64,000 bases of DNA from Raillietiella orientalis (lineage: Eukaryota): NCBI GenBank assembly GCA_036172245.1, contig JAYWIR010000012.1, positions 62,001-126,000 of the forward strand, given 5' to 3'. This document shows positions 12,479 through 64,000 of the stretch, in pieces. The position numbers were made by a program, and so were the translations under genes. How positions within the stretch are numbered: position 1 is the stretch's first letter; each line of letters starts with the position of its first letter. The notes under the pieces were generated by a model. It had not been told where the DNA came from. It saw only the letters and a program-made list of their open reading frames with translations, and did not search any database.

Positions 12479-12717
12479 GGTCTCCAAGATCACCTGACTG
12501 TACTGAGAGCCGTCTTTACACTTGTATGTGCGTATTCGTTATCTTCAAATAATTTGTAGACTCTTCTTTAGGGTCATAGGCATTAAAATGCTAGGAAATG
12601 TCTGCATGCTGTGGATGGAATTACCGTGCTCACACCATTGAGCATACATTTCGCCCAACATTTTTCTTTCTGTCCGTAACAAGACTTCAAAGAATCTTCA
12701 ATATCTTCCTCTTTTAG

Positions 12718-15977: not shown

Positions 15978-16048
15978 CCGCGTCGGAGGCTTTGTGGTTA
16001 AGGCTTCCGCGCGTGGCACCATGCGTCACGGGTTCGAATACTTCGGCA
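15978..16048 (+). promoter_or_regulatory. tRNA-derived head (Pol III A/B-box-like) at the LINE 5' end
   Basis: CCGCGTCGGAGGCTTTGTGGTTAAGGC...CGCGTGGCACC...CGGGTTCGAATAC; aligns with the heads at 9731, 33351, 36857(-) and 39047. Confidence 0.65.
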
Positions 16049-17142: not shown

Positions 17143-17155
17143 GTCTTCCCCTTTT

Positions 17156-31357: not shown

Positions 31358-33350
31358 GTAATAGAAATTTGGGAAGAGTAAACATTAAGAAGCTGTGCTT
31401 AATTCCACTAGTACTAGGAGGCACGGTCAGCTGGTCAGTGAATGAGTCGCTGAAGCCGGTAGAAAATGCTAGAACATACTTGGTAGACAGAATTGACAAG
31501 CGATCAAAACCCCGAATGCCGAAACAAGAAATCGTAAAAATAAAAGCAACTGTTTGTGATGTGCATCAATATGCATTCGTATATATGTAAGAAATGCTTA
31601 TCCAATCAACACGATAATATGGAATTATAAAAAAAATAATAATCGTGACAATTAAAAATAGTGAAAATCAATGAAAAGGCAAACAAATAAAAAAACAAAA
31701 TTCCCCATATCAGAACGTGTGTGTTCACCAATATTTACAAAATATGTATGTTAAAATGGATTTTTATATCAACCTATATGTAAATATGCATTTTAGTACA
31801 CATACTGAACACATGTGTTCACACTTTCTAATTTTTATAGTACATGTTCATCCAGATATATATATAACAAAATGTGTATTTATTCTTTATAAACTTTCTA
31901 ATACATAAGTGGATGCATTAATAATCTTCAGAATATTTATTAGGCTATATGGAATTGCATATATTTACATAAATACTAATCATGTTTATGTACTTCATAT
32001 GGTCTTTCGCGGAGGCGACATTCTGGATTTTGATCCTTCTCGGGTTTTGAACCGAACCCTATCGACGCGATTGCAAGTGGACGGAACCCTTCGGATGTTC
32101 CACGTAACCGCTGTTAAGCCCTAAGGGTGTTTCAATAGGAGTGCCCCTTGGAGAGGGAGGGCACCACTCCAAGGTGCAGGCGAGGCTCTGCGCCAACGAC
32201 ACTGGCGTTTCGCATCTCCTGAAATGGCCAGGACGCCTGTGGGAACGGGCGCAGAACTTGGCATCTCGCTTTGCACACCGACCAAGGAAGGTGTGAACTC
32301 TGGCCCCTGGCCAGCGGGATGCCAAGCGAACGCGAAACATGAAAAGTAGCGCATTACTATTTCGAGCTCCTCCTTGCTGAATATGTACACGAGCGAGAAC
32401 CTCAGCCCGACCAGGAAGAGGAGCAACAAGGGCAGCGCGAGTGCCAGAATGGTGGTGCACTTGGCGATCCACAACAGCGCGAAGCCTGCCAGCTGAATGA
32501 AGGTGTACAGGTGCATCCTCCAGGTTTTTATCTGGAGCAAGGGAACAGTGAGCGGGAGCGGCCGTGATGGACAGTCGTTACCTTCTGCACGTATTGAACA
32601 TTGGGATGGTGCTCCATGGGGATGAGCAAAAGTTTCAGGCGATCGTACAATTGAGTTCCCTGCATGTTGATCACACCAAGGTAGAGGAAGATCCCAAACA
32701 CCACGGAAGTAGGGATCCTTTTCAGGATGGGACTCATGAGCACAGATATTCCCAAGAGAACGCTGATGAGGAAGCTGCTGACTCTCTGCTCTGGTGAAAG
32801 CGAAAACATGGAGCTCAGTTTTTAAGAAGCTGAAGGTTTTCTGCAGTTTATTTAGCATTTAGTAACATACATTACTTTCACATATATAGTAGTATATATA
32901 TGTAGTAGTTCCTCGGTACTCGTCGGTAATTGGTTTCGAAAATCCAATAACCCCATCGCGCGTCCACGCAAGCCACACGGACGAGCACGCGAGCCACAAG
33001 CAAAACCTTGCGAGCAAGAAACATCAAAAAGAGGGGAAAAATTCAAAAAATTGATGGATGAATGATAACGATTTTTTTTGTCACCCCCCCTTCCCTCCCA
33101 GTGGCGCGAACCTCCCCATATTTCCATGAGTCTGTAGGAATCTCTGCCCGTTCGGGCATTAAACCGAGTTCTTCTGAGAGAGGCACTGCTCTTTCGCAGA
33201 GTTGAGACAGCGGGAATTGAGAGTGCAATACCTCTCGCCCAACGCCCTTTCTTTTGTTTTTTGCTGATACGACAGAAAGCAATGTATTAAATTCAGGATT
33301 GCATAATGATTCGGTTTTTCTGATTTATTCGGTTGTGCATTGATGATTGC

Positions 33351-37223: not shown

Positions 37224-39046
37224 TACAGGGTCCCCTTTCTCGCGGCTAGAGTCTACGCAAGCTACCGGGAAAAGAATCTTCGGGTTTAAAAGCAACCGGA
37301 CGGTTCTCATGGACGGGTATGGATGGTATTTTCAACTTAGGAAGCGCGTAGAAGTGACCAGGCCGGAGTCGTTTCCTTTTAATAGCTGAACGAGTGGAGA
37401 GGTCCTTACAGCAAGGGAAGGATATTTTGAAGGATGGAAGGACTCTATCCCGAAATACGATGCAGTTGATAAATCGAGCTTCCAGTATTCTTTGAGCACC
37501 CTGAGCTCACCAGCAGGATATTAGGCGAATATTTTCACAAATATGCATCCTCGCGAAATCGAGAATTTTCACTTGGAGTATTCCAAGCGTTCCTCAAGGA
37601 GCGGCTACGAGCCCGGGATCCAAAACGCGTGCGGTGGGACGCTGTTTTCCAGCCTCCTCGGACATCCGCCACTGGTTATCACTTTATTTGTGACGGAATT
37701 TTCCAGCATGCTAAATTCAAAGTCGCCTTCCGATGTTTGCTTCCGTTGTCGTCTTTTCCTTATTGGAGCCAGCTGCTGAGAACCTTATGACAGGATTGAT
37801 CACGTGTGCTCGTGACGTAATCTGGATGAGTCAATTTTCCGAGCAAGTTCCCGAATAGGTGACGCTCTTTTTGGTTGTGCGCAGCTTTGGAAAGCCGTTC
37901 CAGGAACCCGCCCTCTTTTTTGGGGGATCGGTTTTTTTTCGCAGGGAACTACAGGTAGATCCACTCTACAAGCTGCGTCTTCCTCGAGAGAAGCGCGCTC
38001 GACCTTTGACCTTCACGGCACCTATGCTGCTCTTTGTCGGGAGACCCGGAGTTCAAGTCAAGGAGTTCAGGTGAGCCATGGACTTGAAGGGAAGTCCGCA
38101 CATCCAAGGAAAGCCGAAGAACCCGCAAGGCACGCACAGTGCCCCGAGGAGCAAAATGTCCAGGTGGAAGCCTGTCCCTTTTTTCAGGTTGCGCTCTTTG
38201 CTGCAGATAAGCAACCTAGACGGAAAGGACTGAACGGACGAGGACTGCTCGGCTTACTCTGTGATCTGCGTCTTCAGGAAGAGCAAGACGTACAGGAATA
38301 CGGCGGGAACGAAGCTCCCGAAGTAGATCCAGATGGGGAGAACGGTTGTCGTTTCCAGTGGACTAATGAGCCAGGACCTGAGTTCGTAAGAGGTCGGGAA
38401 CACCTTGGGAATGAGCAAGGTTTCCAAGCTCCCGATTTCTAGGAAACTAGCAGCCGACACCATCGCTGCGATGGAACCGGGCACCGTGAAATTGCCGATA
38501 ATCTGCCGTGTCTGCAACGGAAAAGAGGGACGAATCCTCGTCCACGTCGAGAAAATGCGTGGGTCCTGAAGGGCGAGGCCTGCAAAGAAACGTACTTTAT
38601 GCCCGAAAAGGACGCTCCTCTTTATGCTTCTGAGCAGGTAAGCCATGCTGAAGGTCCCCAGCATCACCAATGTTGACAGGAGCGCTGTGTTGGATGGAAG
38701 GGCCACAGACAGTCTAATTCGAAAAGATACAGTGTCTAACAAGAAGTGCAACCACTGAACGCTATAGGCAGCGGTTCCTCCGTAATGATATTGCCTAGAT
38801 GCTCAACAAGTGCCCAGCTCGAGTGTGGAGCGCCCCTCCGGCTCGTGGTGGTCGCGTCCAGATGTTTCGCGTGAGAGCCTACTCTGCAGGAGTCATCGGT
38901 GACCACCGCTTTCGCGAGAAAACGAAAACAGCACGTGGGAATCGCAGTCCTGGCTCACCTGAAACCCAAGCGACGAAAACGCCCATCTGGGCAGCGTGAC
39001 AGTCAGATGACTTCACTCGATGTTTTTCCACGGGACCGACCCAAAC

Positions 39047-43600: not shown

Positions 43601-45039
43601 CAGCTGAGGCGTCAGCCACACCCGTTTACAAGGGAACTCTCAAGGAGAATGGAGGAAAAAGGAATTTTTCAATGTGGAGTAAATCGAGGAGAGAATGGTG
43701 GACTTGATGACCGAGAAGAGCAAGCGGACTGATCGAAGCATAACAAAATGGACTTGGTGGATTGAGGCAAGCACAGTAAATGGAGGAAGAGCAAAGAAAA
43801 CGATATCACAAAAAACTACAAGGTCCAAACGGGCCAAGGGGATGTTCTGGATGGAGGAGAGCCGGATGCACCAAACGAATCGAAACAAGTGCAGAAGCTG
43901 AGGATTCGCGTAGTGCACTACGTGGATCGATGGTTGCAAGAGTTCGTCCAGATGAAGGAAAGCACGTGATCGAAGAAAGGAACTTAATGAGCGCATTCCT
44001 TGGGTCCGAAAGGTCTTCGGAACGGTTGGGTAAGCAGATGGGGCAAGACCAGAATGGACCCTGGTAGCTGACATGGAGAAGAAGGCCATTTCTCGTGCCG
44101 CGCCGCACCACTTCGTTCCTTCGCGACAGAATCAGAAAATACGAGGCGGAGCTGGTCTGCACGGAGGGCGCCGCAGCGGAGCGAACGGGAGGTACGTGCA
44201 CGTGACCGTAGAGAAGGTCCTTACCAGTCTTTGTCGGAAGTTCGTTGAGTGGCGTTCGAGCGGTCAGGAAGTTGGGACTGCTGGAGGTAGATCTGAAGGA
44301 AACGGAGCGGTGCGCCGATACAGGCCTACACGGGAGTGCCTACTTTGTAGAGCTTGTGGAACGCCTCGTATATGAAGAACACGGATACGAAGAAGGAGAA
44401 GATTTCCTCCGTGAACCTGGTGAACCAGTGCACCAGGACGCTGCCATCGAGGCAGGAGACCACGATCGCCACGGCGAAGGTCCACATGCCGATCCAGATG
44501 CGGGAGGACAGAAAGTCCACCTCCAGGTACCTGCAGACCTGGGGAGGGCAGGGTGAGCTTACGGTGCTGGACGTGACCACACTGAAGCGTACCGCGAAGA
44601 GGTTTGCATCGTAGAGCAGTCCGGATGCCATGCTCGCGGGGATCACAAGCGGCTAGGCGGACAGCAGGGAAAAGATGACACCGGAGACGGCGGTCGCCAG
44701 GATGTTCTCGGACACGCCGATCAGGTTGCCGGTCTTCTCGCCTGGAGGAGGCTGCGGTTCGCCCCGACCTCCGGGCGGGTGAGGCCGCACACACTGTACA
44801 GACCGCCCATCGTGACCGCGGAGAAGAGCTGGGCGAAATGAATGGAGAGAACGGTGGTCAGGACGCTGAGATGGAGGCCGTCCTTGAGATCCGAAGGGTA
44901 CTCGGAGTACCTTCGCTTCACTTCCTGGATGACCCCGTCGAAGAACCTGTTGAACCTCTTCCTCGTGTCGGAGCGGTCCCCACCGGAGGACGGGGGAGGG
45001 AACCCTGGAACAGGGAGCGGGTAAAAGTCAGGCGGGGTC

Positions 45040-47862
45040 CTTCCATCACAGGTAGCACGACAGCCCAGCCTGCTGGACGACGAAGGCCAGGAGCACTCGG
45101 CCCCGGCAGAGGTGAGCAGCCTAGTGCGTGGTTATTATTCCTCCCTGTACACCAGGGTGCCTCCGGACCGGGATTTTTCCCGGCTTTTGCTTCCGGATGG
45201 CGCCCCGGCGATCGGGGAGGAAGAGAGAGCACGCCTGGATGAGCCTTTCACGATGGGTGAAATCATCACCGCAATCGGGAAGCTCAAAAGGCGGAAGTCA
45301 CCGGGGGAGGACGGCCTGCCCGCGGAGTTTTGTCGATGCTTCGCGGCGGAGCTTGCCCCCCTGGTGCAGCGGTCAACGCTGCTGATCCGGGAGGCAGGCG
45401 ACGTTCCCGCCTCCTTCCGATCGGCACGGATGCGTCTTCTCCCGAAGGGAGGAGACTTACGGAACCTCAGCAATTGGCGTCCGATCACCGTTTCAAACGC
45501 GTACGCCAAGCTGTTTGCGAAGCTATGGTCGGAACGAATGGGGCGGATGGCGGAAAGCTTCATCAGCCCGGAACAGACATACTCGGTTCCCGGGCGAAGC
45601 ATGGACGCCAACCTGCTCTTCGCGAACACCGGTTCGAGTTCCAGCGGTGTAGAGTAGATGAAAAGAATAAGGTCGGCACCCCGAGTTGCGGGACGTCCGC
45701 TGGTGGTTCGCGAGATGGTCGGGAGCGCGAGGGGGCCCTCGCGGTCGCAGTCGATCTGCGAAAAGCATTTGACTGCGTTGACCAAGAGCTCCTGCTGGAG
45801 CTAATGGAACGTCTGGGATTCCCGGCCTCCTTATTAGCCTTTCTGCGCTCTTGCTTGCGCGATGCGCTGACCAATATTTTTTTCAGAGGAAGAAACGTGT
45901 TCGGTGTGCCGGTGCGCCGCGGGATACGGCAGGGTGACAGCTTGAGCCCCTTGCTTTTCAGCACCTACTTCGAGCTGGTGCTGAGGACATACAGGGAGAT
46001 TCTTGGTCGCCTGCCGCGCGTGTGCCCAGGTACACCGGCCGTGGCGTCTTATGCGGACGATCTTTTGCTGCTGCTCCCCATGTCCACCCCGGCGTCGGCG
46101 GTCGAAAACTTTTTCGAGCTGCTGCGTCGCTGAACAGGGCTGGAGGTGAACAGAGCGAAGTCGTCCGTGGTTGCAGTTGGTTCAGCGCGGGCAGGGCAGC
46201 CGGACAGGTCTAGCTTAAGGATCCCCACGGTACCGTACTTTAAGTACCTTGGTGTGCCGTTGGGAAACTATTCCCCTGCGGAAGCGTGGTCTAGCTGCCT
46301 CCAAAAGGCCGAGAGAGCGATCGGCCCGTTCCTGGATGGCAAGTTTTTTTTGCCGGAACGGGCCGTGGTGTGGAACACGTTCGTGGCCGCCCTTTTTCGC
46401 TTCTTGCTTTTTGTTTGCCCTCCACCCTGCGGTGTCAGAAAACGGACGAAGGACCTCCTCAGAATCGCCCTTTGGGGCAGAGGTAGGTCCCGAGTCCGTT
46501 TGAAGGACTTATGTGCCCCTCGTCGCGATGGAGGCCTCGGCCTCCTCACGCTGGAGCGGCTGGAACTGCAGCTGCAGTTCAGGACTCTAGCTCTAGTAGC
46601 GAAGCTATGGAGCACCAGCTGGTGCGAGCATGCACGACGCCTGGTTCAGCGAGCTAGCGGCTGCGCGGGACTGTCTACCTTCCTAGCGCGCCGCAAACGC
46701 CGGTACCTGTTCCACTGCGAACTGGCACTTCGGCGAGTGGCGAAGCTGACCAGAACGAACACCTGGATCTCCTGACGGCCCGCGAACGGTACTTCCTAGT
46801 TGCAGGAAAGCCTTCGCACGTGGGCCCAGATCGAGGAAGCGAGCCCGGAGTTGCGGCAGCGAATGCTGCTCTCCTATCACAAGAGCCGCTCGCTGCAGGA
46901 CATCATTATGCAGCCCACCTTGAGCGCATGGGCTGAGAGGACCTCCCTTGCCACGGCTCTGTTCCACCTTAGGGATCACCTGGGCAGTAGCCAGCCGGCG
47001 AAATGGGAAGTCAGGTGCAGTATCTCTGGAAGAGAGAGAGATCAAGGTGGTTGGATCACGGGCCAGTTGACAGACGCTGCGACCCCAAGTGCCCCACCAA
47101 AGGGACTATTGCGCTGGGGCGAGCTGCTAAGCATCCCCATGAATGTACTCGAGTGGCCCTCGGTGCTGAAGACTACCCGGGCCCTCCCCCTGAAGTGGCA
47201 GGAGTCGGCGTTCCTGGTGTTGCACTGGGGACTCCCCAGCAACGCCCGCCGTTCGCACTGGACCAGGGGGGGCTGTGGACCCAAATTGTGTCAGGTGCGG
47301 GGAACGGGAAACCCTCCCGCACCTGCTTCTTGACTGTGTTGTTCTCCGGCCTCTGTGGTTGCGTTTCGCAACGGTCCTAGGAGCACCCACGATCAACCCT
47401 AGAGACGTTCTGACGCGCCTCTTTGTGCATGACGCCCTTCGGCCTGCCGCAGCCCTTGCAGCTCTTTGCTGCCTACGAGGGATTGTGGCGGTCTGGAACA
47501 CCGCCACTGGTGGACTGAACGACAGGGACATCATCTGCTCCGCCCTACGTTTCCTAAGGACGGCAGCCAGATGGTCCCATTTCGGGCATATGCGGACCGA
47601 ACTTGCCGGCATCCTGGAAAGGATGTAGAGGACCACCCCAGCGGAATGTGATCCCTTCCCCAACTCTTCCCTGCTTTTGTAAATAGAGTTTTCTTTTTGT
47701 TTGTATTTGTCCTTCCCCCCCCGCTGCAGAGTCGAACTCGCCAGCCTGCGTGCTGGCTACTCGGTAATTTCAGACTCTTTATTAGAACATTTTTTTTAGG
47801 ACGCTGTAGGGCCAATAGCCCTACACTTGCTTGTTTGTTTTTACTAAAAAAATAAGCGCCCC
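45040..47862 (+). mobile_element. 5'-truncated Tx1-like LINE (RT to 3' UTR), decayed
   Basis: LLDDEGQE..YYSSLY, GEDG, WRPIT, DLRKAFD, RQGDSLSP, YADD, KYLG, CVRCGERETLPHLLLDC; several frameshifts and stops. Confidence 0.93.
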
Positions 47863-48131
47863 TGCAGTGATGATTTCACCCATCGTGAAAGGCTCATCCA
47901 GGCGTGCTCTCTCTTCCTCCCCGATCGCCGGGGCGCCATCCGGAAGCAAAAGCCGGGAAAAATCCCGGTCCGGAGGCACCCTGGTGTACAGGGAGGAATA
48001 ATAACCACGCACTAGGCTGCTCACCTCTGCCGGGGCCGAGTGCTCCTGGCCTTCGTCGTCCAGCAGGCTGGGCTGTCGTGCTACCTGTGATGGAAGGACC
48101 CCGCCTGACTTTTACCCGCTCCCTGTTCCAG

Positions 48132-48911
48132 GGTTCCCTCCCCCGTCCTCCGGTGGGGACCGCTCCGACACGAGGAAGAGGTTCAACAGGTTCTTCGACG
48201 GGGTCATCCAGGAAGTGAAGCGAAGGTACTCCGAGTACCCTTCGGATCTCAAGGACGGCCTCCATCTCAGCGTCCTGACCACCGTTCTCTCCATTCATTT
48301 CGCCCAGCTCTTCTCCGCGGTCACGATGGGCGGTCTGTACAGTGTGTGCGGCCTCACCCGCCCGGAGGTCGGGGCGAACCGCAGCCTCCTCCAGGCGAGA
48401 AGACCGGCAACCTGATCGGCGTGTCCGAGAACATCCTGGCGACCGCCGTCTCCGGTGTCATCTTTTCCCTGCTGTCCGCCTAGCCGCTTGTGATCCCCGC
48501 GAGCATGGCATCCGGACTGCTCTACGATGCAAACCTCTTCGCGGTACGCTTCAGTGTGGTCACGTCCAGCACCGTAAGCTCACCCTGCCCTCCCCAGGTC
48601 TGCAGGTACCTGGAGGTGGACTTTCTGTCCTCCCGCATCTGGATCGGCATGTGGACCTTCGCCGTGGCGATCGTGGTCTCCTGCCTCGATGGCAGCGTCC
48701 TGGTGCACTGGTTCACCAGGTTCACGGAGGAAATCTTCTCCTTCTTCGTATCCGTGTTCTTCATATACGAGGCGTTCCACAAGCTCTACAAAGTAGGCAC
48801 TCCCGTGTAGGCCTGTATCGGCGCACCGCTCCGTTTCCTTCAGATCTACCTCCAGCAGTCCCAACTTCCTGACCGCTCGAACGCCACTCAACGAACTTCC
48901 GACAAAGACTG
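48132..48911 (+). pseudogene. Inverted copy of four SLC4 exons
   Basis: Exons 48132-48341, 48395-48543, 48598-48792 and 48844-48911; the same TAG at 48481. Confidence 0.9.
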
Positions 48912-49329: not shown

Positions 49330-52205
49330 CCCTGCCTGCTAGTAGGCTTCTACGCACGCCGAACTCTGCGTGAAATTCTTGAATTTCCACCGAGTTGCAC
49401 GTGGGCGGAAGGGACACCCCTTGCTTCGGCGATGCCTTTCCTCCAAAGGGCGCTTCACGAAAGCCGGAAGCTGAGGTGGCAAGTCTGCTGCCGTATCGCA
49501 GGCAGAGAGAAGATAATGAGCGGCTGGACCATGGGAGAGCTGACAGATGCTACGACCCCTAGTCTCCAGCCGCGTGGATTAAGAAGATGGGCGAGCTGCT
49601 CGGCATTCGATTGTATGACCTGAAGTGGCCCCCGGTTCTACTTGGATCCAGGATTCTTCCCCTGAAGTGGCAAGAATCGGCGCTTCTGTGGCTGCATTGG
49701 GGTCTACCCTGCAACGCGCGCCACTTCCACTGGACGCGGGGAAGAGTAAATCCTGCATGTGCCAGGTGTGGGGAGCGGGAGTCGCTCCCCCACCTCTTAT
49801 TTGATTGCCCTGCCGTCCGGATTCTTTGGGATCGTCTTAGAACGGCCCTTGGGATACCAGATGGTGGCAACCTCAGAGGCGTGTACAGTCTTCTCTTCGT
49901 GCGGGACGCCCTCAGTCCACCCGCAGCCCTGGCAGCACGTTGCTGCATTCGTGGTATCGTGGCGGCCTGGAGTGATGCCGAAGATGAAGATTGCATCGTG
50001 AGGGACGTCATTGAGTATGCTGTTCGCTTCCTGCAGAGAGCTACCCGATGGCCCCATCTGGGAAGAATGAAAATGGAACTCGAAGGCATCCTGCAAAGGA
50101 TGGGCCCTCCCAGCAGTTGTCTGTGATCCCTTCCCGGCCCTCCAAACTCCTTTTGTTGTTTTTTCTCTTATTTTATTTTATTTTTGTTTTCTCCCCCATC
50201 CCCTTCCACTGCCGAGGAGAGCCACACCGGGCTGCGTCCGGGTGTCCCGGCAGGTCCGGTATTGCGTGGCCGTCAGTGGGGCCTTGTACCACGTTCTTGA
50301 ATGACGGAAGAAATGTTTTTTTAATAAATGTCCCGGCGTACCCGGGTGGCATCACCAAATCTTTTCGGGAGACGGTCCATGGGGAACTGCTGGCAGAACT
50401 CTCGGACCGAGACTTTCAAATCGTCCCAGTCGTCGAGCGTCTGCAGGCTGAAACCTCGCAAGAACGCGCGGAGGTGTTCCGCTGCGCCTGGCTTCGTCAG
50501 CCAGTCCCCCGGTAGACTCCACGCCTGCGAGGGGGGCCCCCTGTCGCGCGAGCGAATGACGAATTCTACACGGGAATGATCGGAGACAGCGGACTGTATC
50601 TTACCTCTCCTGCCCACGCGACAGCGCAGGTGATCGTCGAGGAAGACGTGGTCCACGCTCCGCTCCATCCCGGCGTCCCCGGCCAACAAGTTGGATGCGT
50701 GCACCGTGGCGCACATCTCGTTAACCGGGGTGGCCTCTGTCCTCGCCGCACCTGATAGCAGGCGAATATTAAAATCGCCGGCTATCAGGTGCGCCGTGCG
50801 CGCGCCTGCCTCCGACAGCCAGTTGCGCTGGAACGCACGGAAGAATGCCGTCCGTGCCACGCGCGCGTGACCGCCGCTCGGCGCGTACACGTTCGTGACG
50901 ACGAGATCGATCGAGCCGGACCACCTGAAGGTGATTTGCCCGACCCTACCTGTCTCATCGAAACGAACTTTCCTCACCGAACCTTGTAAGGCAGGCAAGA
51001 CGTAAGACGGCGCTGCTAGTGCTCCATTGGGGACTCCTTTTCAGAGCACGCCTCTTCCACTGGACCTCAGGGAGTGTGGATGCCATTTGTATAGAGTGTG
51101 AGGAAAAGGAGAGCTTCCCCCACTTAATCATAGAGTGTGTTGCCCTCCGGCTGATGTGGGATTGACTTTCGTCGATCCTAAGCATTCCGGTGGGCGACTC
51201 CAAAAACATTTTTGGTCAGCTCCTGATGCGGGACGCCCTGCCAACCGCCGCATGTGTTGCAGTTTTCTGCTGCATACGTGGAATTTTGGATATGTGGACC
51301 GCAACCAAGAGAGGACGAAGAAGTCGAAATGCCATACACTGGGCAGCCATCTCCTTGGAAAAGGCTTCCCGTTGGCGCCGACTTACAAAACATTTGTCGG
51401 CACTTCTCATTCAAAACGGGATGCAGATGTCTCCTCGCGGCGTACGGCCTTTTCACGTATCCTTTTCCTTTCCTCCCCTCCCCATAAAACTTTGTCCAGC
51501 CGGGCATTTTTCTTTTTTGTGTTTTTTTTTTCTGCTTTTCGAGCCCTCTTTGCCAGAGGAGAGGACCTTACCGGCCTGCGGTATGGACAGGTGCCACAAT
51601 ACAGTGAAAACACATCTTTCTAAGTGAAAAGAAGTTCAAGTGACAAGACTTTAATACGAAATTTTCATTTGAAAAATTTTACTAATAAAAGTCCCAGCTT
51701 ACCCCGGTGAAAAACCTCAAATTCCCATTTCGCCGTGATGCTGCTGCTCAGCTGCTTCCTGAGGGAGGGAAACGCTGCGATGAGGAAAGTTCTTCCAGCC
51801 CACCCTCTTCTTTCGGGATCCTCCAGGATGCTTCGAAGCCCGCAGCGCTTCTTGCGCGCGAACGGAAAACGGCCGCACCTGTTCCGTGCGTTTGTCCTGG
51901 CTCCCCATCCACATGGGAACAGTTTCCTGTAGCCAGGCACCACCGTTCTCGGGGCGACAAGAAATCCGTCCCGTGTTCTTGCTCGTCAGAGTGGTCACCC
52001 GCCGAACCTGCAATCCACATTGGCAGATGTGGAGGCGCCGCGACAGGAACCAACACAGTCCCGCGTAGCCGGTGGCTCGCTTGATCAGGTACCGTGCGAG
52101 CTCGCACCAGTTGGCGCTCCACAACTTCGCCACTAGGGCCAGTGCCGTTCGCTGGGGCTGCTGCTCCAGGGGCTCCAGCGTCAGTAGCCGAGACCTCAAT
52201 CCGTC
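49330..52205. mobile_element. Nested Tx1-like fragments: 3' end (+, ~49330-50348), APE (-, 50349-50985), 3' end (+, ~50990-51712), RT-distal (-, 51713-52205)
   Basis: CARCGERESLPHLLFDC; DETGRVGQ..NVYAP..AGDFN..SDH; HLIIEC; LLTLE..ALVAKLW. Confidence 0.88.
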
Positions 52206-52999: not shown

Positions 53000-54130
53000 T
53001 GATCATGTAACACTTTGACGGTGTAAATTTTGAAATTGTAAATGATTCCAGGCGAATAGCACGATAAAAACGCTTTGTAGCCCCATTTCGTAGTTTTCTT
53101 CTGCACCAAACCTACGTTTGCCTTTCAATGGTAGTATTTGTTCATCGACACCCAGGTGCTCACCCATCGGAATAGGACTGAAGTTTCGAACCAATTTGTC
53201 GAGAATAGGTTCCATTTCTTGTGCTTTGTCCATTCCCTCTGAATCATTCGTATTAGCCTCCTAATTTGTGCCAAAATGTGTTTTGGATTCAATTTTTTCG
53301 CATCAAGCACGACCGTATTCTCAACGGCAGATCTCTCTCCTCTGATTGATCTCCAACACATCCGAGACCTTGGTAACCCTTAAACTGACATCAGAAGGCA
53401 ACAACCAAACAGTCCTTGTATTCCATAATATGAAACAGCTGTGGATTCCGCAGGATCACCAGCGTTGCAGGGCATAAGTATGGGTACACTCGACCGTATT
53501 ACTTCTGATTTCGTCATCAGATAGTTATCGCAAATAGGCCGTAGCGGATTGGGGTGCTTCTGGATCTACGGGACAGTTTCCTTTCCGAGGAAGATGAAGG
53601 CTCTTTTTCGGATGGGATACTGGTTGCCAAGATATTTCTTGTTATTTCAAATTTTCATCACTCTTGACGGTCCCCTACTCAAATTATCGTCTCTATCAGT
53701 AAGATTTGCACGTCGTCGTGTGAGATCTATTGGCCGATCTCCGTCGGTGTCCCATTCTAATAAACAACCCACGGATCTACTACCGCTAATGCTTCTTGTT
53801 CTTTCCACTCTTCTATTTTTATGTTGTGCTTTGGTATTCGTGTTTTAGGCCTCGAACATAAGAAACTAAAAAGAAAAGGAATCCCCCAGCGTCGTTGCAA
53901 ATACAGCGAACCTTACCATTATAGCTCGAGGTCACAAAGCTATGATGGTCAGCTGCCATGATCCTCACTGGACGTCCCGGCAGGTCAACACGGTCACGCA
54001 GTCGTCCAAAGAGTGCTTCCCATGCTTGCTGGTCCAGAGAGGGTTCCAAACAAGTCGACGCGTTTCCTGGAGCACCGACTCCATTGGTCATCCGAGAGAG
54101 ACAGTGGCTGCGGGGATATCTTAGCGCGCG
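53000..54130 (-). mobile_element. piggyBac-like transposase relic
   Basis: EHLGVDEQILPLKGK and, in a shifted frame, KWGYKAFLSCYSPGIIYNFKIYT, matching the piggyBac DDD-domain VDE.M.PFKG...KWG.K motif. Confidence 0.8.
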
Positions 54131-57100
54131 AACGCCGCGGACGGAGCTCGTCATCAGCTGATCAAAGAGTGGTAATCATTGTATCACAGTTAATCAATGA
54201 AAGTTTCCAAAGAGTTCACCTCTCTCTTCTTGGCCTTGGTAATTCGGAACACAGCGTGGCTTCCCCAGAGCTAGGTCAGCATGCAGACCGACTGCTTTCC
54301 TCCTCGGTTGATCCAAGATTCTGAATCGAATTTTCTCCTGTGCTTTCTCTCCTTCCGTTACGGCTGAATCACATTCATGTCCTCTAAATTTATTCAATTT
54401 AGAACTCTCGTTTCGTGAACGCTGAACCCTGTTGAGACGTTCGTGTGTTCCTAGTTATTTTAGATGAACATCCATCTCTGTATGGGACTCAAAAAAAGAT
54501 GCGTTGCATCTGTGGGCTCCTTCGAATTAACGGGGTTTCGTGATCCCGCCTGCAAGCGAAGGTACGCATCGTTGGTCAATCCTCGCCATCTTTGAGAAAG
54601 CGAATTGTTTTCTGTTATTTTCTGCTTCTCTCACTAGAGGTCAAGCGGGAGCAAGTCAGACTGGAGATTCACATAGAACGTTTGCGGTAGGGTTTGGGAA
54701 TTCATAGTGTTCTGGAAGTTTGAGGTCCCCTTTTCCTTCTGAATGCTCCGTCGATGCGGTCGGCGTCCAATTGTGAGCTACTTTGGTGCTTTGGGAGAGC
54801 CACGGATTTGCCTGCCTTCCTGGAATGCTTTTTTATTGCTTTTTCTAGAGGAGTCTGGACTGACCTCTTGTACAAAAACCAGCGTCTCAGTTTGGTCGCT
54901 GGTTCTTTGAGGGAATTCCCCATCCAGCTGAAAAACCTCCCGTTCCTTCACATGTGGTCCCTAGAACGATCGGCAGCTCGTAGCAAAGGCCTTGCCGTGA
55001 TTGGTCAATAATAAGACAAGAATTTTAGCCGCGTCGCAGGGAAGCTCGAATCCTAGGAAACCCGGGTCAGCTCCCCAGTCAGGAAACCGGGACCATCTCG
55101 GCTCTCCGCCGTGCCCGCGGCATTCTGTTGCTCCTGTGCCGTCCAAGGGCAACGGAGCGACCTCAGTACGCCACCATCCGACTTGAAGATGACAATGTCC
55201 AGCGCTCTGTGCGTCAGCCAGGAAAGGTGTCACGGACGGAAAGAATTCGTGGTACCCCCGGTCGCGAGGTCTGACATCCCGATGGCTGTGCAAGAGCAGC
55301 CGCGAACGGACGGCGAGCGAGTCGCCGGTTTCCTGGCCTGGGCTTGGCCTTCGTTGTGGGAAGAACGGAAGTATGTGGAAGAGACGCTGATCACCTGCGA
55401 ATGAATTCTGGGTCACCGCGCAGCTCACGTGATGCCAATCTCTGCTGCCTTGAAGTAATTGTGGAGGCAGAGTCCCTGAGACGCCTAACGTGCTACTCTT
55501 CAGCGGGAACCGTCCCGCAGTCTGCCAGACCGTTGCGGGAGTCGAGTCTCCGAGAAGCTCTCTTCGGTAGATGGGAATTTCCGTCACGGAAGGTGTGAAG
55601 GCGGCGGGCTTTTTCCCTTGGGCTGCATGGCGCCTCCTCAGGGAGCCAGTCGTCGCAGCTGGTCCTCTGCGACGTTCAGAAATGAGCAGCCTGCGAAGTC
55701 CCCTTCCACCTGACCATCGCAGAGATCCCGCACTGACTTCCCGAAGGCTCTTTGAGTTTCCCGTCCCAGGCGCTCCCTTTTCGCAGCTTCCCTGCAAGGA
55801 AGGCGTCCTGCTGCGTTTACCGGGCGCACCACCGCAGAGAGCCTGCGGAAGGAGAGCCGTCGCTTCTGCTCCGGGCCGGTGTCTGCAAACCTTCTCCTCC
55901 TGCTACCTGTTAGGAAACAAAAGGCCGGACAAAAGACCATCTTACTTTCTTCTAGTGGATGCACCTGTCTCCGATTTTCCCGGCTTGTTCCAAGAAGCAC
56001 CTCCCTCTATCGACCTATCTTGACCCTTGTGTTCCATTGGCGGACACACTCAGCGGGTTCGAAACCTCCCCACAGGAGAAGGTATTTTTCCTTTCCCTCT
56101 TTTGCAGAGAAATCTGAACGTGAGGTATTGTCCCCACGTGTGTCAGATGCGCTTTGCAGGCTCCGGACTGGTTTATTTTTGGCGTGAAGTCTTTAGCTTA
56201 CCTGGAAGACGGGCTACCAGACCAGACGAGACTTGCGCAGGCAGTCTTCATCGCACCTATTGCTTGGTCCCGGCTTGCATGCCATCCTCATCTTGAGAGC
56301 CTGGTTTCGCTCCACAAAGGCTCTCTCACCGCATTTCTTGCGTTTCGCCCCTCCCGCCTGGTGTGCGCAGCACGGAACCCCGTTCGCTGAGGCATTCAGG
56401 AGCAGCGCTCCGCCGGACCGACGAATGGTTTCGTTTCATAAATGCAGACCGCGTACCAGAAGGCAGCGCGACGCCATGGACCACCCTCCTTCCTCCCCTG
56501 CGAGCCGTGTCGTGAGGGTCGAGAAAGCGGGAAGCTGCATCTCATGCTCCCGCCGCCCTCAATCTTTGCAGGGGGAGGCGAGGTCATCAGAACGCAAATG
56601 CCAATACCACCTCTCCGGCGTGAGGCCTCGCAGAGTCCAGAGGGATGCGATCCTGTGATCCAGCCCATCTCATTCGGATGCGTGCCATCAGTTACTCCAT
56701 GAGGATGAAGAATTCTAACTTCAGCTTTCTCTGATCAGCATCCAATCGGAGGTCACGAGAGTAGAAAGGAAAGTTCACGGAACATCCTGGATTTTCAGTC
56801 CTTAATGTGCATCTTTGTTGATTGGATCGAGAATGCAGCATTGAATACGAATGAGATTCTTATCCAGCATCCCGGATGGTAGGGCGTGCACGGATCCGTC
56901 TCCCCTTTTATGGACACCAGCAACACAGTGGCTTCGATCTTATCCACTCATTCCCTGTTCACATGCGCATGGAAAACGATCGCAATGAGAGTTTATTATT
57001 TAAAAAAATAATTAATAAAAAATTGATGTATGGAAGTGGCACACAAGGATTTTCGCGAATTGCGGGGATCTTGTGTCACAGGCACGTGACCGAGGAAAGA

Positions 57101-57163
57101 GCGTCTTTCCCATCCTTGCGTGAGGACCAGAGAATATCGCTATGTGAAACGTGACGGCATTCG

Positions 57164-58537
57164 CTAGGTAAGACCAGGTTACGTTTGTTTGGGTTAGGTC
57201 GGGTGAGGTGAGGTTAGGTTAGGCTGGGTTAGGTTAGCGTAGGTTAGATTTCTCGCCTGGTCACCGAAGTGTTTAATAAAATAAACCAGTTGGGAACAGA
57301 GTTCCCAACCGACGAAGAAACAAGCAAAAGGCAGAGTCCACCGGCACGCAGTCTGGGATAACAGAAGTTCGGGACGGAGCGGGTGATCGGGGACAACATA
57401 TAGAAATTCAAATGCGGTGGGTTTGCTCCGGGAGGCAATGGAATAAAAACAAAAACACTGAAGGAGTTGCGGAGCGAACGGGGATGGGGAATGAAACAGA
57501 AAATAAATAAGTAAATAAAATAGAATTGAGAAAGGGTAGGAAAGGGCAAGGTTCTCCGGAGTCCGCCGTTCTTAACTGTCCATCAACCAGCTGTGTATGG
57601 CGGAGATCTCCTCCTCTGCTCTTTCTTCCAGGTGACATCACCTTGCAGCCTTCTCATGTAGGCGCCTGCCAGACAGTGGACCTCCCTTCGCTGCTATTAG
57701 GCTAGGTAGCGTTAGGTGAGGTTGGGTGATGTAAGACTTGGTGAGGTTAGGTTAGATGAGTTAGCCTTAGTGAAGACAGGTTATGTTAGGTGAGGGTAGT
57801 TTGGATTCTCTTAGCTTAGGTTAAATGAGGTTTGTCAGGTCACAGTGGTGGAACACTTATTTCTATCACGCGCATAAGACTTGCCAAAAGCCGGTACGCA
57901 GACCGGTGAGGTCCGTTCCAGAAGCAAAGGGGAAGGGAAAATCACGCACACACAAAAACAAACAAAAAAGAGAAAAAAGAGGGAGGGGAGGGAGATGGCA
58001 GGGCAGGCCGGGGAAGGGGATCACTGCTCGCCTGGAGACGTCCTCTGCATCCTGTCCAGGATTGCCCAAGTGGGGAGATCACGACGCGGTCTTCAAAAAG
58101 ATCCTCGTCCAGTGTATGGCGTCCCTGCCATTTTGGCCTCTTGTTGCGTTCCAGCATGCCAAGACTCCGCAAATGCAGCAGAGAGTTGCTAACGACGCGG
58201 CTGGCGGCACAGCGACACGCACGAAGAGAGGCCCCAAAATGTCTCTGGGGTCGCCTACCGGGATTCCTAAGATTCGTCGTCAGACGATCCCAAAGGGGCA
58301 CGTCGATGGGCGGCACAATCCATCAAAAGATGCGGGAGTGTCTCCTTCCCACATCTGTCTCACTTAGCGTTCACGCTCTCTCATGTGCAGTGGTGAAGGC
58401 GTGTTTTGCATAAGAGTTCCCATGCAACACCGGCAACTCCGACTCCTGCCACTTGAGGTTAGATGGGGTTAGGTTGGGGGTGTTGGGTTAGGTAGGGTTA
58501 GGGTTTGTGAGTTTAGGTGTGGTAAGGTCAGGTTGAG
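57164..58537 (+). repeat. Three degenerate (TTAGG)n tracts: ~57164-57247, 57697-57840, 58457-58537
   Basis: Runs of GGTTA, GGTGA and GGTAA pentamers. Confidence 0.8.
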
Positions 58538-59600
58538 TTTTTCTTCCGGTTTTACCGATGCATTTATTCTTAAAATAACAACTAAAAGTCATACAAATTC
58601 ACAATAACTTGGTCGAACGTGCTTAAAACTCACCAAAGCCGACACATAGACCGGCTAGGTCCGTTTCCGCGGCGACGGGAAAGGGAAAACCGAAAAAAGA
58701 AACAAACAACAAAATGGGAGGAAGAGTTTTCTGAGTAGCGGGGGAAGGAGGGGAAGGGATAACATTTCGCCGAGACACGTCCTCTGCACCCTGTCCAGGA
58801 TACTGACAAGTTCTGTATTTTTTTTCTCCCAGGTGGGACCATCTTGAGGTAGTCTTCAAAGAGATCCGCACCGAATGAATGGCGTCCCTGCCATTCTGGC
58901 TTCTTCTTCCCGTGTTCTAGGCTGCCACGACTCCGCGGACACGGCAGAGAACTGCTAGGGACGCGTCTGCCCGCAGAGTGACATGCATGAACAGGAATCG
59001 AAAGATGTCCCTGAGACCGCCCACCGGGAATCCTAGGGTCGTCGCGAAGTGATCCCAAAGGAGTTAGAGGGCAGCACAGTCTAACAGCAAATGCGGGAAG
59101 ATCTTCTTCCCGCAGCTGCTGCACCAAGCATTCGCATTCCCCCGTGTCCAATGATGAAGGCTCGCTTTTCGTGGGATTCCCCCATGCAACAGCAGCAGCG
59201 CCATCTCTTGCCACTTGAGGTGAATGGTTCCACTGTTCCAACATTCTGAGTGGTCAATTCACATCCTCCGGAGGGATGTCGAGCAGCTCCCCCCAGCGTA
59301 AAAGTCCTTTTTGAGAAACACGCGTACGCGCAGCGTTCGCTAGCTGCCGAGTTGTCCACGAGCTGTTTGGTTCTTCTCTGCCCTGGATGCGGCAGGACTC
59401 TTCCCTCTTTTTCGGAAAGTCGCTGTCCCTTGCGCTTTAAAGGGTGGGCAGCGCTGGAACAAAGGGGATGAACGAAGCTCCCTTGCTCTTGACATACCCC
59501 TTGACATAGCCCGGTTTTCAAACGGAGGGCACAGAGTCCCTGCCGCGACCTCACCTCGCCTTCGCGCTGAACACAGGCGGCGCAACGGTAGCGTGAAGAT
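57248..59600 (-). mobile_element. Three co-oriented Tx1-like 3' fragments (57248-57696, 57841-58458, 58538-~59600)
   Basis: LKWQE..HG remnants and the ORF2 C-terminal end, T-rich 3' UTRs with the CTGCGT stem-loop, and AATAA/ATTAAA terminal motifs. Confidence 0.8.
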
Positions 59601-61462
59601 GGCGCGCTCAGGAAGACTTAAGCTGCCGCTCCCGGGAACCCGAGCTCCGAGCTTGGCTCGCGGAAGCCGGCCGGCGTCCAAGGGAGTCGGGGACACCCAG
59701 TTGTCAGACAACTGAGAGTCTCCTCGGAAACGTCCGAAGAGGCAGGAAACGGCCGGAAACGGCCGAAGAGGATGGTTGAAATTTGACCAGACCTGTCCGG
59801 CCCAGGGAGGAAGAGGGGCAGAAACCAGCCCATCGAGTGGCGGTTCCGCTTCTCCGATGAACGTCTCCGATGAAGACACCCACCGCGAACCCTCTCTTCT
59901 TCAGCGATGGTGAAGCCGGAAAGGCGTGGGAGGAGGCGGACGCTGTGCAAAATCCTCTTTTATCTCTCGGCGCTGCCCGGAACGCTCGACTCTGCCAGGT
60001 TCCGTCTCTCCTCGATCGGCTGCTCTCTGCGTCGACTGATGACCTCAAATGGCGGCAGTCCCCGGCATCTTCTAAAACGCTCATCATCTGCTGCTTCCGC
60101 GAACTGCTTTTGTTTCCTTGCTGGTGTGATATGGTGGTTCGGAAGGTCCTCGTATAACGCGTGGGATCCGTTCCGCGTTAAACGAGCCCTAGGTCATGCG
60201 TGAACTGGCTAATGCTTGGAAATTCGCAGCTTCAGTCACATATTCGGACTCAACCAACTGAATTCCACGAACATCTACCTCTGCGAATTCACCGCGAAAT
60301 TTCTTAATTTTGGTTAAAAAATGAATAGTCAGATTATAATTGCCACAGTGAATTTTAGAATGGACCGACTGATTCCGTTCCACACTTTATACCATCATTC
60401 TCTATCTGTTCTACTCATGGTCTTAATATCATCACACACATCACCAACTATTCAAAACAAAATTACCATCATAAACTCCATTTTCTCTGGCCGATCTCTT
60501 CACCCTCTCTATAATATGGTATCGTACAGTGGATTTCCTCAATGGCGTATAACGTGCTCAGTCATCCCTGTACCACGTTGTGGATAGATTTCTGTTTTGT
60601 GCTGAAGCGCCAGTTCAGCCGCTTTCGAAGAGAACTAGAACACCACCCACCTGTTGCTCCCTTAGTGTAGGACTTCGAAGTGTTCTTTCACGCCGTTGTT
60701 CTCTGCGATCGGCATTGCCTGCTGGAGATGTGCTACGTGTGTACCAGCAGTGCCTCCAGCCAGTTCAGAAAACGAAAAACGTACAACGTGAATGAATTGG
60801 ACTGAATTTTTTTTCATTCAGATTTTTCTGAGAGAAATCGCTCAAGAAGGCACATTTTTCAGAAAAGAGAATGATGGAACGAAAACTATAAAGCTGCAGA
60901 AATTGATAAAATATTAACAAAACCCTGAAAGCGTTTTTTTTACTTAAGGCGTAATAATAAATGAGCACTTCTGATTTTTACCTCTTTGTCTTTAAGTGGA
61001 ATAATAACTATTCTATTGCTATGCGTTTCATTCAGAGAACATTTTATACTTTCCATTAATGGCCTTCATATAACATGGGAGATACTTTTCGCGTAATACA
61101 AATCCGCGTTATACGAACTTTGTATATTAAACGTGAATACTACGATGGTATTTTACGATGGTATTTATTAAATGATGTGTTTGCGTTCTTTTTAAAGAGA
61201 GATGAAGCCATACTTTCCCACACGTTTGCTCTTGCTTTTCAGTGAACCTTCGAGGCTTGTGTACTGCAACCGTGAAGTCCACTGCTTGACATTCTTTAAC
61301 GTGCTACAGTTCCAGGAGTCTCACAACGTCAGCGAAAATTTTGCAAGAGCTTCTGGCAACATATTTGAGCATAATTTCTGGGAAATTATGCTCAGAAAGT
61401 CCGCGTAACTTAAATGCTTGATTCGTTCATAATGGGGGAACAGAAAGAGCAAAAGACTCAAA

Positions 61463-61565
61463 AATGGGAGGGAGGGAAAGAGCGGAAGGATCAACAATGG
61501 AAGGGAGGGAAAGAACGGAATGATCAACAATGGGAGGGAGGGAAAGAGCGGAAGGATCAACAATG
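61463..61565 (+). repeat. 33-bp minisatellite, 3 copies
   Basis: AATGGGAGGGAGGGAAAGAGCGGAAGGATCAAC x3 (the middle copy has 3 changes). Confidence 0.9.
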
Positions 61566-63629
61566 CAAGAAACGTGAAGAATGAAAGGCTCAACAATGAA
61601 ATAATTATTTTTAGCTGTCTATGCCATCAGTTTCTCGATTTCAGTTTTTCTTGGAACCACACCTCTCACCTCTGCTTTTTGCATGTTCGAATTATTGTTC
61701 TATTCCTGGATTGCACTTTGCGCAGCATTTTGCTGAGGTTGCCCACTCTGGTTCCCCTATTTTTTGCCCTGCATTTCCCTGAGTTTCCTCAGCCTCGCTC
61801 TCATCTCTTAGTAGTATGACTATCTGCCGCCAGCGAATATGTGTGAACGCGAGGAATCCTCAGCTCTTTTGAAGCGCCGTCGTTGCCAGGTTCCCACAAT
61901 CCCGAGGGCGTACCACCAGCACACGGATCGAACCCTGAGGACACCTGGCTAAGGGAGGACTACCTGTTTCTTCCAATATGTGCAAGCAGCTTCTTCAGAT
62001 GGCCTCACACTGTGGAACACTTCCTGAGATCTCCTTCCGAGCTTTACCCTCGCGCGTTGGGGCAGTGGGATCCCTTGAGCACGAAGCCAATTTCACGTCC
62101 CACGCCTTTCCAGGAAAGCCGCGGTGGAGGCACGCCATCAGCTGGGAGCCGGATAGCGCAGCCCCAAGCAACTCCCGCTGACCTGGAAATCTGCTTTCTG
62201 CGAGAGATGGCCACATCCCTCCTGGCTGGCGACTGCCTTTGCACCCTCCAGGGTGAGGTGGGAGCTATCCAATAGTCCATCCCCTATGAATTCCTTTTTT
62301 TGGGGGGGGAGGGGGTTCTTTTCTTCGTGGACTCTCTCCACCCGCTTCTCTTTGTCCCTCCATCGCTCCGGCGTGGAAAACAAAATGGTGTCTCCGTCCG
62401 TCCGACCTGAACTCCATGGGGAACGAGCTCTCCACCAGCTTGCTACCTTGCATAGGTGGCTCCTCTGCAGGAAGGAGACTACCAGAAGAGGATCCACTCA
62501 ACATGCGCCAAGGCCGGTCCGAGTTTGCCGACGAGCTGGTCTGGCGTTTCGGCTGCTGCAGCACCTGGGGTGAAACGCCAAGACGGCGCAGGGGTCTTGT
62601 AGTCGAAGGCCACCCTCCTGAAGTAGGTGAAGTCACAAAGTCAGGGGACGCATGCAGTCCGAAGGGTCGAGTTCGAATCTCTACAGAGACCTTCTGCCCG
62701 AATACCCTGCTGCTGCTTCTGCCTCTGGGATTTCAAACCGGTGTGCGTGCGTAAGAAGCGAGGTCTGGAGGGCCACCAGACTTATCCATTGTAGTCGATA
62801 GAGGCAGAAGACGCTGGAAATGGGCGAAGACCTCTCCCCCTCTCCCCCTCACCACCTTCCAAGTTCTCCTGGCGTTTCTACCTTTCCTCGGCGCGTGTTT
62901 CACTCCTACGACGCACCAGGACTCGTTGGCAAACAAACGTTGCCACCCCTACCTGCCTAACGGGCAGCAGGACTGAGGCCTCGCTCTCTGTCTTCGAAGT
63001 ACACGGGGTTCGAACCCAAGCTCTGGGTCAAGATTGGTCACTGGCCAGCCAACCACAGGGCGGAAGTCGGTCAGGTCAGGTCTTCGTCATCCCGCACGCG
63101 AAGACGGGAATCAGCGTGAGCAGCAGCAGCTCTTCCTCCCAAGCAGAGCGCCCTTAAACGCGCAAAGGATCTGGCACATACTCTTTCGATCTCTCTCCGC
63201 GCGGTCAGTACGGTCAGGGTGAGCCCCACGGGCAAAGCGAGATGTTTCATCATCTCAGCGTGTCTCTATCCACAGAATCCCAGCCTTAGCATCTTGTTGC
63301 TGCCGCTTCCCGCGAGTGCCAGCTGATAGAGTTTTCCGGCTTTTTGCCGCGAAAGGACGCCTTCGTGTCGAGGGCATCTGCGTGCCTTAAGGTCACGATT
63401 CGCATCGTCTCGAAAGATCGCGCACCGTCACGGTTTTCGGGAAGTCCTACTCCGAACGGGATCAATCGCCATGGGTGCGGAGCATCGGGAACGTCCTCTG
63501 TGGTGCTCTCGGGAAGCTTCCACCGCGGATGCATCTATCCATGCCGGCTGTCGCGCGTTTGGCACGGATGGAGCACACATTCGGATCTTCGAGGAAGCAG
63601 AGGGCACGCTCCTCTTCGCCGACTTGCAG

Positions 63630-63949
63630 GAGCCCATGCTCCAGAGTAGTTGATCAACCGCCCAATCCTGGAAGCGCAGATCGGGGTCTTGAAGCCTCAA
63701 ATATCTGCAAAGTCAGCCCGCGAACCAGCAAGTCCTCACACCTCCTCAGTCTGGAGAACTCCTGCACCAGCCACTCAGTTCGTACGCGTCACCATAGGTG
63801 TCCCTAGCGCGCGGCGATGAATACCGTCGCTAACCTCCCGGAGAATGCCTCCATGCACCATGCAAAGCGACGGATTGCAAATATTCCCAGAGCTTGATTT
63901 CTGACCTGAAGGAGCAGACTTGGTCAAAATCGCTGATTTCGGTTCGTGA
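63630..63949 (+). pseudogene. Possible degenerate protein-kinase fragment
   Basis: GADLVKIADFGS at ~63911-63946; upstream LKYLQ; no HRD motif found. Confidence 0.25.
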
Positions 63950-64000
63950 ACCTTCGGAGTGCCGCAGAGTGAGAGCAGGATGGAGACGTGGAAAGCGAGA

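Follow-up and report, generated by a model that had tools for sequence, protein, structure and literature searches.

How did three truncated retrotransposons, each running at its 3' end into repeats that resemble those of telomeres, come to lie head to tail at an internal site of a chromosome sequence? The question was raised by an initial annotation of a 64,000-nucleotide stretch of Raillietiella orientalis DNA (GenBank assembly GCA_036172245.1, contig JAYWIR010000012.1, positions 62,001 to 126,000 of the forward strand; this whole stretch is hereafter the window, and its own numbering is used throughout). That annotation described, on the minus strand between 57164 and 59600, the 3' ends of long interspersed nuclear elements (LINEs) followed by degenerate (CCTAA)n, and proposed repeated oriented insertion into a telomere-like tract. 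LINEs associated with telomere repeats are well known, including TRAS, SART and the HeT-A group. The answer that we favour, with slightly less than even confidence, is that an interstitial telomere-like tract, now decayed, was struck three times by LINE insertion primed on its G-rich strand. The locus is a decayed fossil without apparent present function, a new example of a known phenomenon that might, with modest probability, mark a new specialised lineage. On present evidence, it is an old and inert relic whose main use is to mark where, close to an anion-exchanger gene, a telomere-like site once existed.

The array occupies positions 57176..59486 and consists of three 5'-truncated LINE copies on the minus strand, all in one orientation and designated A, B and C in head-to-tail order. 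Directly after the 3' end of each copy comes a pentameric (CCTAA)n tract, degenerate and 73-145 nt long (tracts 1 to 3, Table 1). At the 3' end, all three LINEs are complete or almost complete. Unit A has a complete terminus, ...AATAAATGCATCGGTAAAACCGGAAGAAAAA, and unit C terminates in ...ATTAAACACTTCGGTGACCAGGCGAGAAA (also written ...CACTTCGGTGACCAGGCGAGAAA); the last bases of the three units are ...GAAGAAAAA, ...GTGA and ...GAGAAA, with no more than five A's and thus no poly(A) tail. Both junction strings quoted in the initial annotation were found on the minus strand, ...AATAAATGCATCGGTAAAACCGGAAGAAAAA joined to CTCAACC at 58568..58531 and ...CAGGCGAGAAAT joined to CTAACC at 57259..57242. 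Unit A gave translated matches to the C-terminal open reading frames (ORFs) of other copies in the window (e.g., E value of 3e-25 with the copy at 49.6 kb), and its LINE homology ended at 59466-59486, so that the upper bound of 59600 first assigned to this unit was about 110 nt too generous. A candidate extension of unit A further 5' of 59486 was rejected; a search there for reverse transcriptase sequence gave a single weak translated match, at 60604-60711, that was not collinear.

We scanned all 64 kb in a phase-aware manner with six units (TTAGG, TTAGGG, TTTAGGG and their complements), using five shuffles as a control. The sole TTAGG-like tracts detected were at 57150-57266, 57682-57846 and 58457-58549, and in all of them TTAGG was on the plus strand. 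Their top in-phase matches per 60 nt were 50, 46 and 44, compared with maxima of 29-32 in the five shuffles and with no more than 34 of 60 for the other units and strands in the same scan. The initial description of 5'-truncated copies in one orientation, each with its 3' terminus entering degenerate (CCTAA)n, was thereby confirmed (44-50 of 60 in the tracts versus 32 in the shuffles). Wrap-around alignment to (TTAGG)n gave identities of 0.79, 0.73 and 0.73, versus a mean of 0.44 and a maximum of 0.54 for 300 random 80-nt windows; with refined boundaries, the identities were 0.73 for tract 1, 0.73 for tract 2 and 0.82 for tract 3. Among nine candidate units, TTAGG had the top alignment score in every tract, and TTAGGG equalled it in percent identity for tract 1 (0.73). 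The alignment of tract 2 included 8 gap columns, and tract 3 kept a single pentamer register throughout with no indels. Tandem Repeats Finder (TRF) called a period of 5 for two tracts and missed the third. Because both the in-phase scan and the wrap-around scores are far above the controls, the tracts are pentameric and strongly non-random, and they have decayed by 18-27%.

Comparison of the LINE portions showed that A and B match each other and four plus-strand copies with 3' ends near 23542, 47860, 50337 and 51713. These matches span the C-terminal part of ORF2 and the 3' untranslated region (UTR), at both the nucleotide and the translated level. In a six-way alignment, A and B were 69% identical, and either of them was 54-61% identical to the four other copies. 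The 5' truncation of B falls at the position equivalent to 59221 in A, and the truncation points of the two units differ: A reaches ~265 bp further 5', and B adjoins tract 1 directly. Unit C is homologous to 29490-29938, which is its closest relative in the window, and to ~7100-7550 (plus strand) and ~6560-6125 (minus strand), and no tract follows any of these copies. A and B thus belong to one sub-lineage, yet are not recent duplicates, and the three units represent two LINE lineages, one with A and B and the other with C. Since A and B are only 69% identical, their 5' truncations differ and C is of another sub-lineage, the three units are independent insertion events. The "three different copies" of the initial annotation stand as separate insertions, although from only two lineages, and the same differences contradict the possibility, which it had raised, of tandem duplicates of one event.

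We counted about 17 LINE fragments of the L1-like group in the window. For 300 bp of tract, 0.08 fragments would be expected, and three were seen (Poisson P ~8e-5). All three TTAGG-like tracts are occupied by a LINE in the same orientation, and each starts at, or within ~2 nt of, a complete LINE 3' end. In contrast, no TTAGG-like tract adjoins any of the seven further 3' ends of related LINEs that could be assessed in the window (Table 1). An eighth end, near 47860, was excluded from this count as it is cut by an inverted duplication, and two of the seven ends were checked against a paralogous empty site. Because of this 0/7 result, targeting of telomere repeats is not supported as a property of the broad LINE group; the proposal of repeated oriented insertion at a telomere-like tract therefore stands for three independent events but not for the family as a whole. 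The tract is a strong but non-exclusive hot spot for this LINE group. Copies of the A/B lineage in the window were found at tracts in 2/2 cases, both at one locus.

The empty sites are provided by a segmental duplication (12479-15977, 20812-22093 and 23543-23937 versus 24959-31356, 92-99% identity), in which two young LINE insertions are restricted to the first copy, making the pair a clean comparison of filled and empty sites for this LINE group. The element at 15978-20811 is full-length: its ORFs, of 472 and 741 aa, are open, and the paralogous empty site confirmed a target-site duplication of 14-15 bp around it. The element at 22094-23542 is 5'-truncated, and the corresponding empty site showed that it replaced ~100 bp of target with no duplication. 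Copies of the group evidently also serve as targets for further insertions of the group. At 49336-52187, LINE fragments lying in either orientation form a dense nest, containing two plus-strand 3' parts (ending near 50337 and at 51713) and two minus-strand pieces, an endonuclease fragment (50989-50324) and a reverse transcriptase/C-terminal fragment (52187-51719).

Units A, B and C keep no endonuclease or reverse transcriptase domain, and the type of LINE was judged from domains of related elements in the window. Three of these elements contain both Exo_endo_phos and RVT_1 domains (Table 1), and two C-terminal fragments showed a weak zf-RVT match (E value of 3e-4, below the Pfam cut-off). Most of the 120 database relatives listed were annotated with RVT_1, Exo_endo_phos and zf-RVT, and were no more than ~36% identical; a database look-up of one LINE ORF returned generic reverse-transcriptase clusters only. 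Among solved structures, the top match of the endonuclease parts was human L1 endonuclease (E value of ~2e-6). The best reverse transcriptase ORF matched human L1 ORF2p (E value of 2e-37), with R2 proteins next, and a shorter reverse transcriptase fragment of another copy placed Bombyx R2 slightly ahead of L1. Neither TRAS1 nor R1Bm endonuclease was among the 10 and 44 PDB matches listed. As far as such structure matches can serve as a proxy for clade, rather than as a phylogeny, they place these elements in an L1-like and not an R1-like group, within which L1 proper and Tx1 are not separated. In the related elements, an apurinic-type endonuclease and a reverse transcriptase are accompanied by a C-terminal zinc knuckle, a layout which is common to the Tx1 and L1 clades and so does not discriminate between them. 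In place of the "Tx1-like" of the initial annotation, L1-like is thus the label that these matches support. A common layout was also observed at the 3' termini at 6125 (minus strand), 7550, 20811, 23542, 29938, 51713, 58538 (minus strand) and 57249 (minus strand), with an AATAAA-like signal, a short CGG...CCG inverted repeat, then GGTGAAAA or GATAAA, and no poly(A). A conserved 3' stem-loop was considered and rejected: a 4-5 bp CGG/CCG hairpin formed in only some of the eight folded ends, and their folding energies were no better than those of shuffles (z of -1.4 to +1.5).

Table 1. Units and tracts of the array, other LINE 3' ends compared with it, and related elements with catalytic domains (positions in the window)
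Feature	Position	Strand	Description
Unit A	59486..58538	-	5'-truncated L1-like LINE: C-terminal ORF2 part with zinc-knuckle region and 3' UTR
Tract 1	58537..58460	-	Degenerate (CCTAA)n, ~78 nt, from 3' end of A to 5' end of B
Unit B	58459..57840	-	5'-truncated LINE of the sub-lineage of A; 3' terminus ...AATAAGTGTTCCACCACTGTGA
Tract 2	57839..57695	-	Degenerate (CCTAA)n, 145 nt
Unit C	57694..57249	-	5'-truncated LINE of the other sub-lineage; ORF2 end and 3' UTR
Tract 3	57248..57176	-	Degenerate (CCTAA)n, ~73 nt; borders unique flank below 57176
Assessable 3' ends	20811, 23542, 29938 (duplicate at 21172), ~50337, 51713, 7550	+	
Assessable 3' end	6125	-	
Related element	17030-20671		Exo_endo_phos and RVT_1 (Pfam)
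Related element	85-3176	-	Exo_endo_phos and RVT_1 (Pfam)
Related element	45025-47330		Exo_endo_phos and RVT_1 (Pfam)

The junctions themselves were also compared. Orientation of the units is fixed (3/3), and the tract is entered at the same or nearly the same position of the repeat unit. With B and C, the tract following the element starts at position 1 of CCTAA; with A, it starts at position 1 when read ungapped in register with the next units, and at position 2 in the gapped alignment. At the 5' junction of B, the element and the tract overlap by a short common string (ACCT), and short shared strings are typical of LINEs at their 5' joins. Okazaki reportedly described in 1995 an arrangement of TRAS1 in which poly(A) is followed by CCTAA, and the junctions of the array, with an A-rich end and then CCTAA, agree with it. 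The terminal A's of the elements prevent a nick after GG from being distinguished here from one after TT; TRAS1 inserts between T and A of (TTAGG)n, according to an excerpt of PMC2868851. A preference for nicking after GG had been suggested by the C that follows the A-rich terminus in 8/9 junctions by eye, and this inference was withdrawn. In the copy ending at 23542, the T after GAAAA is target sequence, as seen from the paralogous empty site, and a candidate target-site duplication of the same copy proved to be a pre-existing direct repeat. The junctions are therefore ambiguous by 1-2 nt.

How these observations might be combined is best seen in the reading that we favour. An interstitial (TTAGG)n tract, of which ~300 bp survive now, would have been present beforehand, and three separate L1-like LINEs would have inserted into it. 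Each insertion may have proceeded by target-primed reverse transcription, with a 3' OH of the G-rich (TTAGG) strand, probably exposed by the endonuclease of the element itself, as the primer. Priming on the G-rich strand would join the 3' end of the sense strand to (CCTAA)n, and all elements would then point one way. Each copy is 5'-truncated, which is usual for LINEs. The tract 5' of A would have been lost through a deletion at the 5' junction, or alternatively A may have inserted at the edge of the tract. Such a loss is plausible because the copy at 22094-23542 replaced ~100 bp of its target, and the target-site duplication of the copy at 15978-20811 indicates that endonuclease-type insertion is used by this LINE group. 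The model is simple, and both duplication-type insertion and 5'-junction deletion are documented in the same window.

Several points weigh against repeated insertion into a pre-existing tract. A simple insertion in the middle of a tract would leave tract sequence 5' of A, where neither a TTAGG-like tract nor a target-site duplication was found, and the missing tract therefore counts against it. The tracts are 18-27% diverged from a perfect repeat, and they would have to have been exact telomeric repeats at one time; TTAGG is presumably the telomere repeat of this host, an assumption from general arthropod knowledge. The phase agreement of the three junctions is weak in statistical terms (~1 in 25 at best). 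At both junctions verified by empty sites, the terminal A of the element leaves an ambiguity of 1 nt, which makes a nick preference undefinable. Finally, A and B are each other's nearest relatives among the copies compared, a relationship that would also be compatible with a specialised lineage in place of a mere hot spot.

One rival explanation, which we regard as unlikely, is a dedicated (TTAGG)n-specific sub-lineage that includes A and B, and perhaps the sub-lineage of C, with an endonuclease that recognises the repeat and inserts only there. Such a lineage would be the L1/Tx1-group counterpart of TRAS1, and the locus a relic of its normal habitat. The identity of A and B to each other (69%, compared with 54-61% to four copies at ordinary sites), the finding of both window copies of this lineage at tracts, and a junction phase that is the same or nearly so in all three units are consistent with this explanation, and precedents are found in telomere-specific Tx1 elements of the green anole and in Zepp of Chlorella (excerpt of PMC10088271). 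However, the closest relative of C in the window (29490-29938) and two others end in ordinary sequence; none of the seven assessable 3' ends of the broad group outside the array is at a tract; A, B and C lack the endonuclease and reverse transcriptase domains that would carry determinants of specificity; and the A/B lineage is represented by n=2, with both copies at one locus. It is doubtful that A and B represent a TTAGG-specific L1/Tx1-group LINE with its own cut position, an independent invention of the way of life of TRAS1, and that the window holds a fragment of its former telomeric or subtelomeric habitat, internalised by rearrangement. If they did, the L1-like group would have acquired telomere targeting once more, here in an animal whose telomeres are pentameric; the A/B lineage would join TRAS/SART (R1 clade), anole Tx1 and Zepp, and would offer a second endonuclease solution for TTAGG. 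A somewhat better, although still minor, chance is given to alternating additions by telomerase and LINEs at a free DNA end, either a chromosome end or an unrepaired break. In that case, telomerase would add TTAGG to the left flank, the 3' end of the G-rich strand would prime reverse transcription of LINE RNA, telomerase would extend the cDNA end, and the cycle would repeat, giving the order tract 3, C, tract 2, B, tract 1, A and then joining to the right flank. Such a series would be akin to HeT-A/TART arrays, or to LINE capture independent of endonuclease together with interstitial repeats made by telomerase. Healing of breaks by repeat addition, which the initial annotation offered as its other possibility, is viable, and it explains the lack of tract 5' of A. 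Without extra assumptions, free-end addition explains a proximal tract at every unit and none 5' of A, and it accounts for the uniform orientation (3' ends toward the 5' side of the G-rich strand), the 5' truncations and the absence of any recognisable target-site duplication. Endonuclease-independent L1 insertion at telomeres was reportedly described by Morrish in 2007. Further precedents are interstitial repeats made by telomerase at breaks and endonuclease-independent LINE insertion (excerpt of PMC2246262). On the other hand, three alternations of telomerase and LINE followed by a final capture would form an improbably long sequence of rare steps. The locus now lies in the interior: non-telomeric DNA extends for at least 4.4 kb to one side of it and for 57 kb to the other, and an anion-exchanger gene is found at a distance of 12 kb. 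Endonuclease-independent L1 events are often 3'-truncated, whereas all three LINE 3' ends here are complete or almost so. Moreover, 5'-junction deletion is documented for this LINE group, so that the missing tract is not decisive. If true, alternating additions at a free end would have preserved a rare natural record of end repair in which both reverse-transcription systems took part together.

Two other explanations both fit poorly. Were the CCTAA tracts borne by the elements, as simple-repeat 3' tails made by the reverse transcriptase or by 3' transduction from masters residing in telomeric repeats, the tract would not be the target. Simple-repeat 3' tails do occur in some LINEs, an example being RTE elements, which generate microsatellite families in Lepidoptera (excerpt of PMC2887409). 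However, the tail unit is unrelated to the terminal bases (...GAAAAA, ...GAGAAA and ...GTGA), relatives including the nearest one of C end without a tract, each tract also adjoins the 5' side of the next unit, and three tailed units lying head to tail side by side would still require targeting, which makes this origin very improbable. Tandem duplication or unequal crossing-over of a single unit of LINE plus tract, followed by divergence, is harder still to credit. A and B are nearest relatives, and tracts on either side could mediate unequal exchange; yet A extends ~265 bp further 5' than B, which directly adjoins tract 1, C is of a different sub-lineage, A and B share only 69% identity, and tracts 1 and 2 differ in length (78 versus 145 nt).

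The array can be compared with several known systems. It resembles TRAS1 and SART1 (R1 clade) of Bombyx mori in that LINE copies of one fixed orientation occur within pentameric (TTAGG)n and several elements are interspersed with short runs of the repeat. As in TRAS1, the 3' end of the sense strand is followed by (CCTAA)n, with the junction at a repeatable position of the unit. Unlike TRAS1/SART1, the related elements here best match human L1 ORF2p and carry a zf-RVT knuckle, the array units have no poly(A) tail, relatives occur at ordinary sites, and the array locus is internal and decayed rather than a live telomere. The Drosophila elements HeT-A, TART and TAHRE also form head-to-tail LINE arrays with all 3' ends facing proximal and with variable 5' truncation; however, they are members of the Jockey clade, no telomerase repeats separate their elements, and they are strictly terminal. 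At present, the array is not terminal: non-telomeric sequence continues beyond it for 4.4 kb in one direction and 57 kb in the other, with no further TTAGG tracts. A terminal location in the past is conceivable. To our knowledge, no alternating series of three repeat runs and inserts has been described. Endonuclease-independent LINE insertion is said to have been reported by Morrish in 2002. Interstitial telomeric sequences formed by break repair (Nergadze 2007, excerpt of PMC2246262) are similar to the array in being short internal telomeric runs with reverse-transcribed inserts, and the use of a G-strand 3' end as primer is common to those cases and to our reading of the array. They differ in that each is a single short run or a single insert, and in that the repeats of the array are heavily degenerate.

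Closer in element type are LINEs of the green anole and Chlorella. Tx1-1_ACar of the green anole has TTAGGG, the vertebrate repeat, as its target. It is described as a telomere-specific Tx1 element (Kojima and Jurka, Repbase Reports 2013; excerpt of PMC10088271). Tx1-1_ACar and Zepp are, like the elements discussed here, L1-like LINEs with an apurinic-type endonuclease and an association with telomerase-type repeats, so that such an association was already known outside the R1 clade. Compared by description only, they differ from the array in that their targets are TTAGGG or the Chlorella telomeric repeat and not a pentamer; specificity has been described for those families, whereas the array shows an association. 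In the open-access literature, a scope that leaves Repbase Reports and subscription journals outside, we found no L1/Tx1-group element reported to be specific for the pentamer TTAGG.

The flanks of the array (53000-57170 and 59481-64000) have no second copy in the window besides an unrelated 0.7 kb repeat and a local tandem repeat, and the array is therefore not part of a larger repeat within the window. The 0.7 kb repeat is an inverted pair (11050-11760 versus 54143-53444, 87% identity) with no domain match, and represents an unclassified dispersed repeat. Rfam and tRNA scans gave no matches. Host sequence in the window includes minus-strand exons of an SLC4-type anion exchanger (Pfam HCO3_cotransp), at 32124-32858, 38257-38802 and 44724-45131. 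Among solved structures, the top relatives of these exons are Band 3/AE1-3 proteins of vertebrates (human Band 3, AE2 and AE3), which makes an animal host most likely; protein searches with exons of this gene returned no scored matches. LINE fragments fill the introns. Between 52 and 64 kb, the minus strand showed neither exons for the N-terminal (cytoplasmic-domain) part of the anion exchanger nor other host domains, apart from one sub-threshold and spurious-looking match. One of the exons is doubled by an inverted duplication of 1464 bp (43810-45273 versus 49326-47863, 99.9% identity), occurring at 44724-45131 on the minus strand and at 48005-48412 on the plus strand with identical Pfam scores. 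The LINE at 45025-47860 is bracketed and cut short by this duplication, for which a palindromic rearrangement of very recent date and an artefact of assembly are the two candidate explanations. The local tandem repeat lies at 61439-61598, ~2 kb from unit A, and has a period of 33/66 bp with 2.4-3.7 copies and 78-87% matches.

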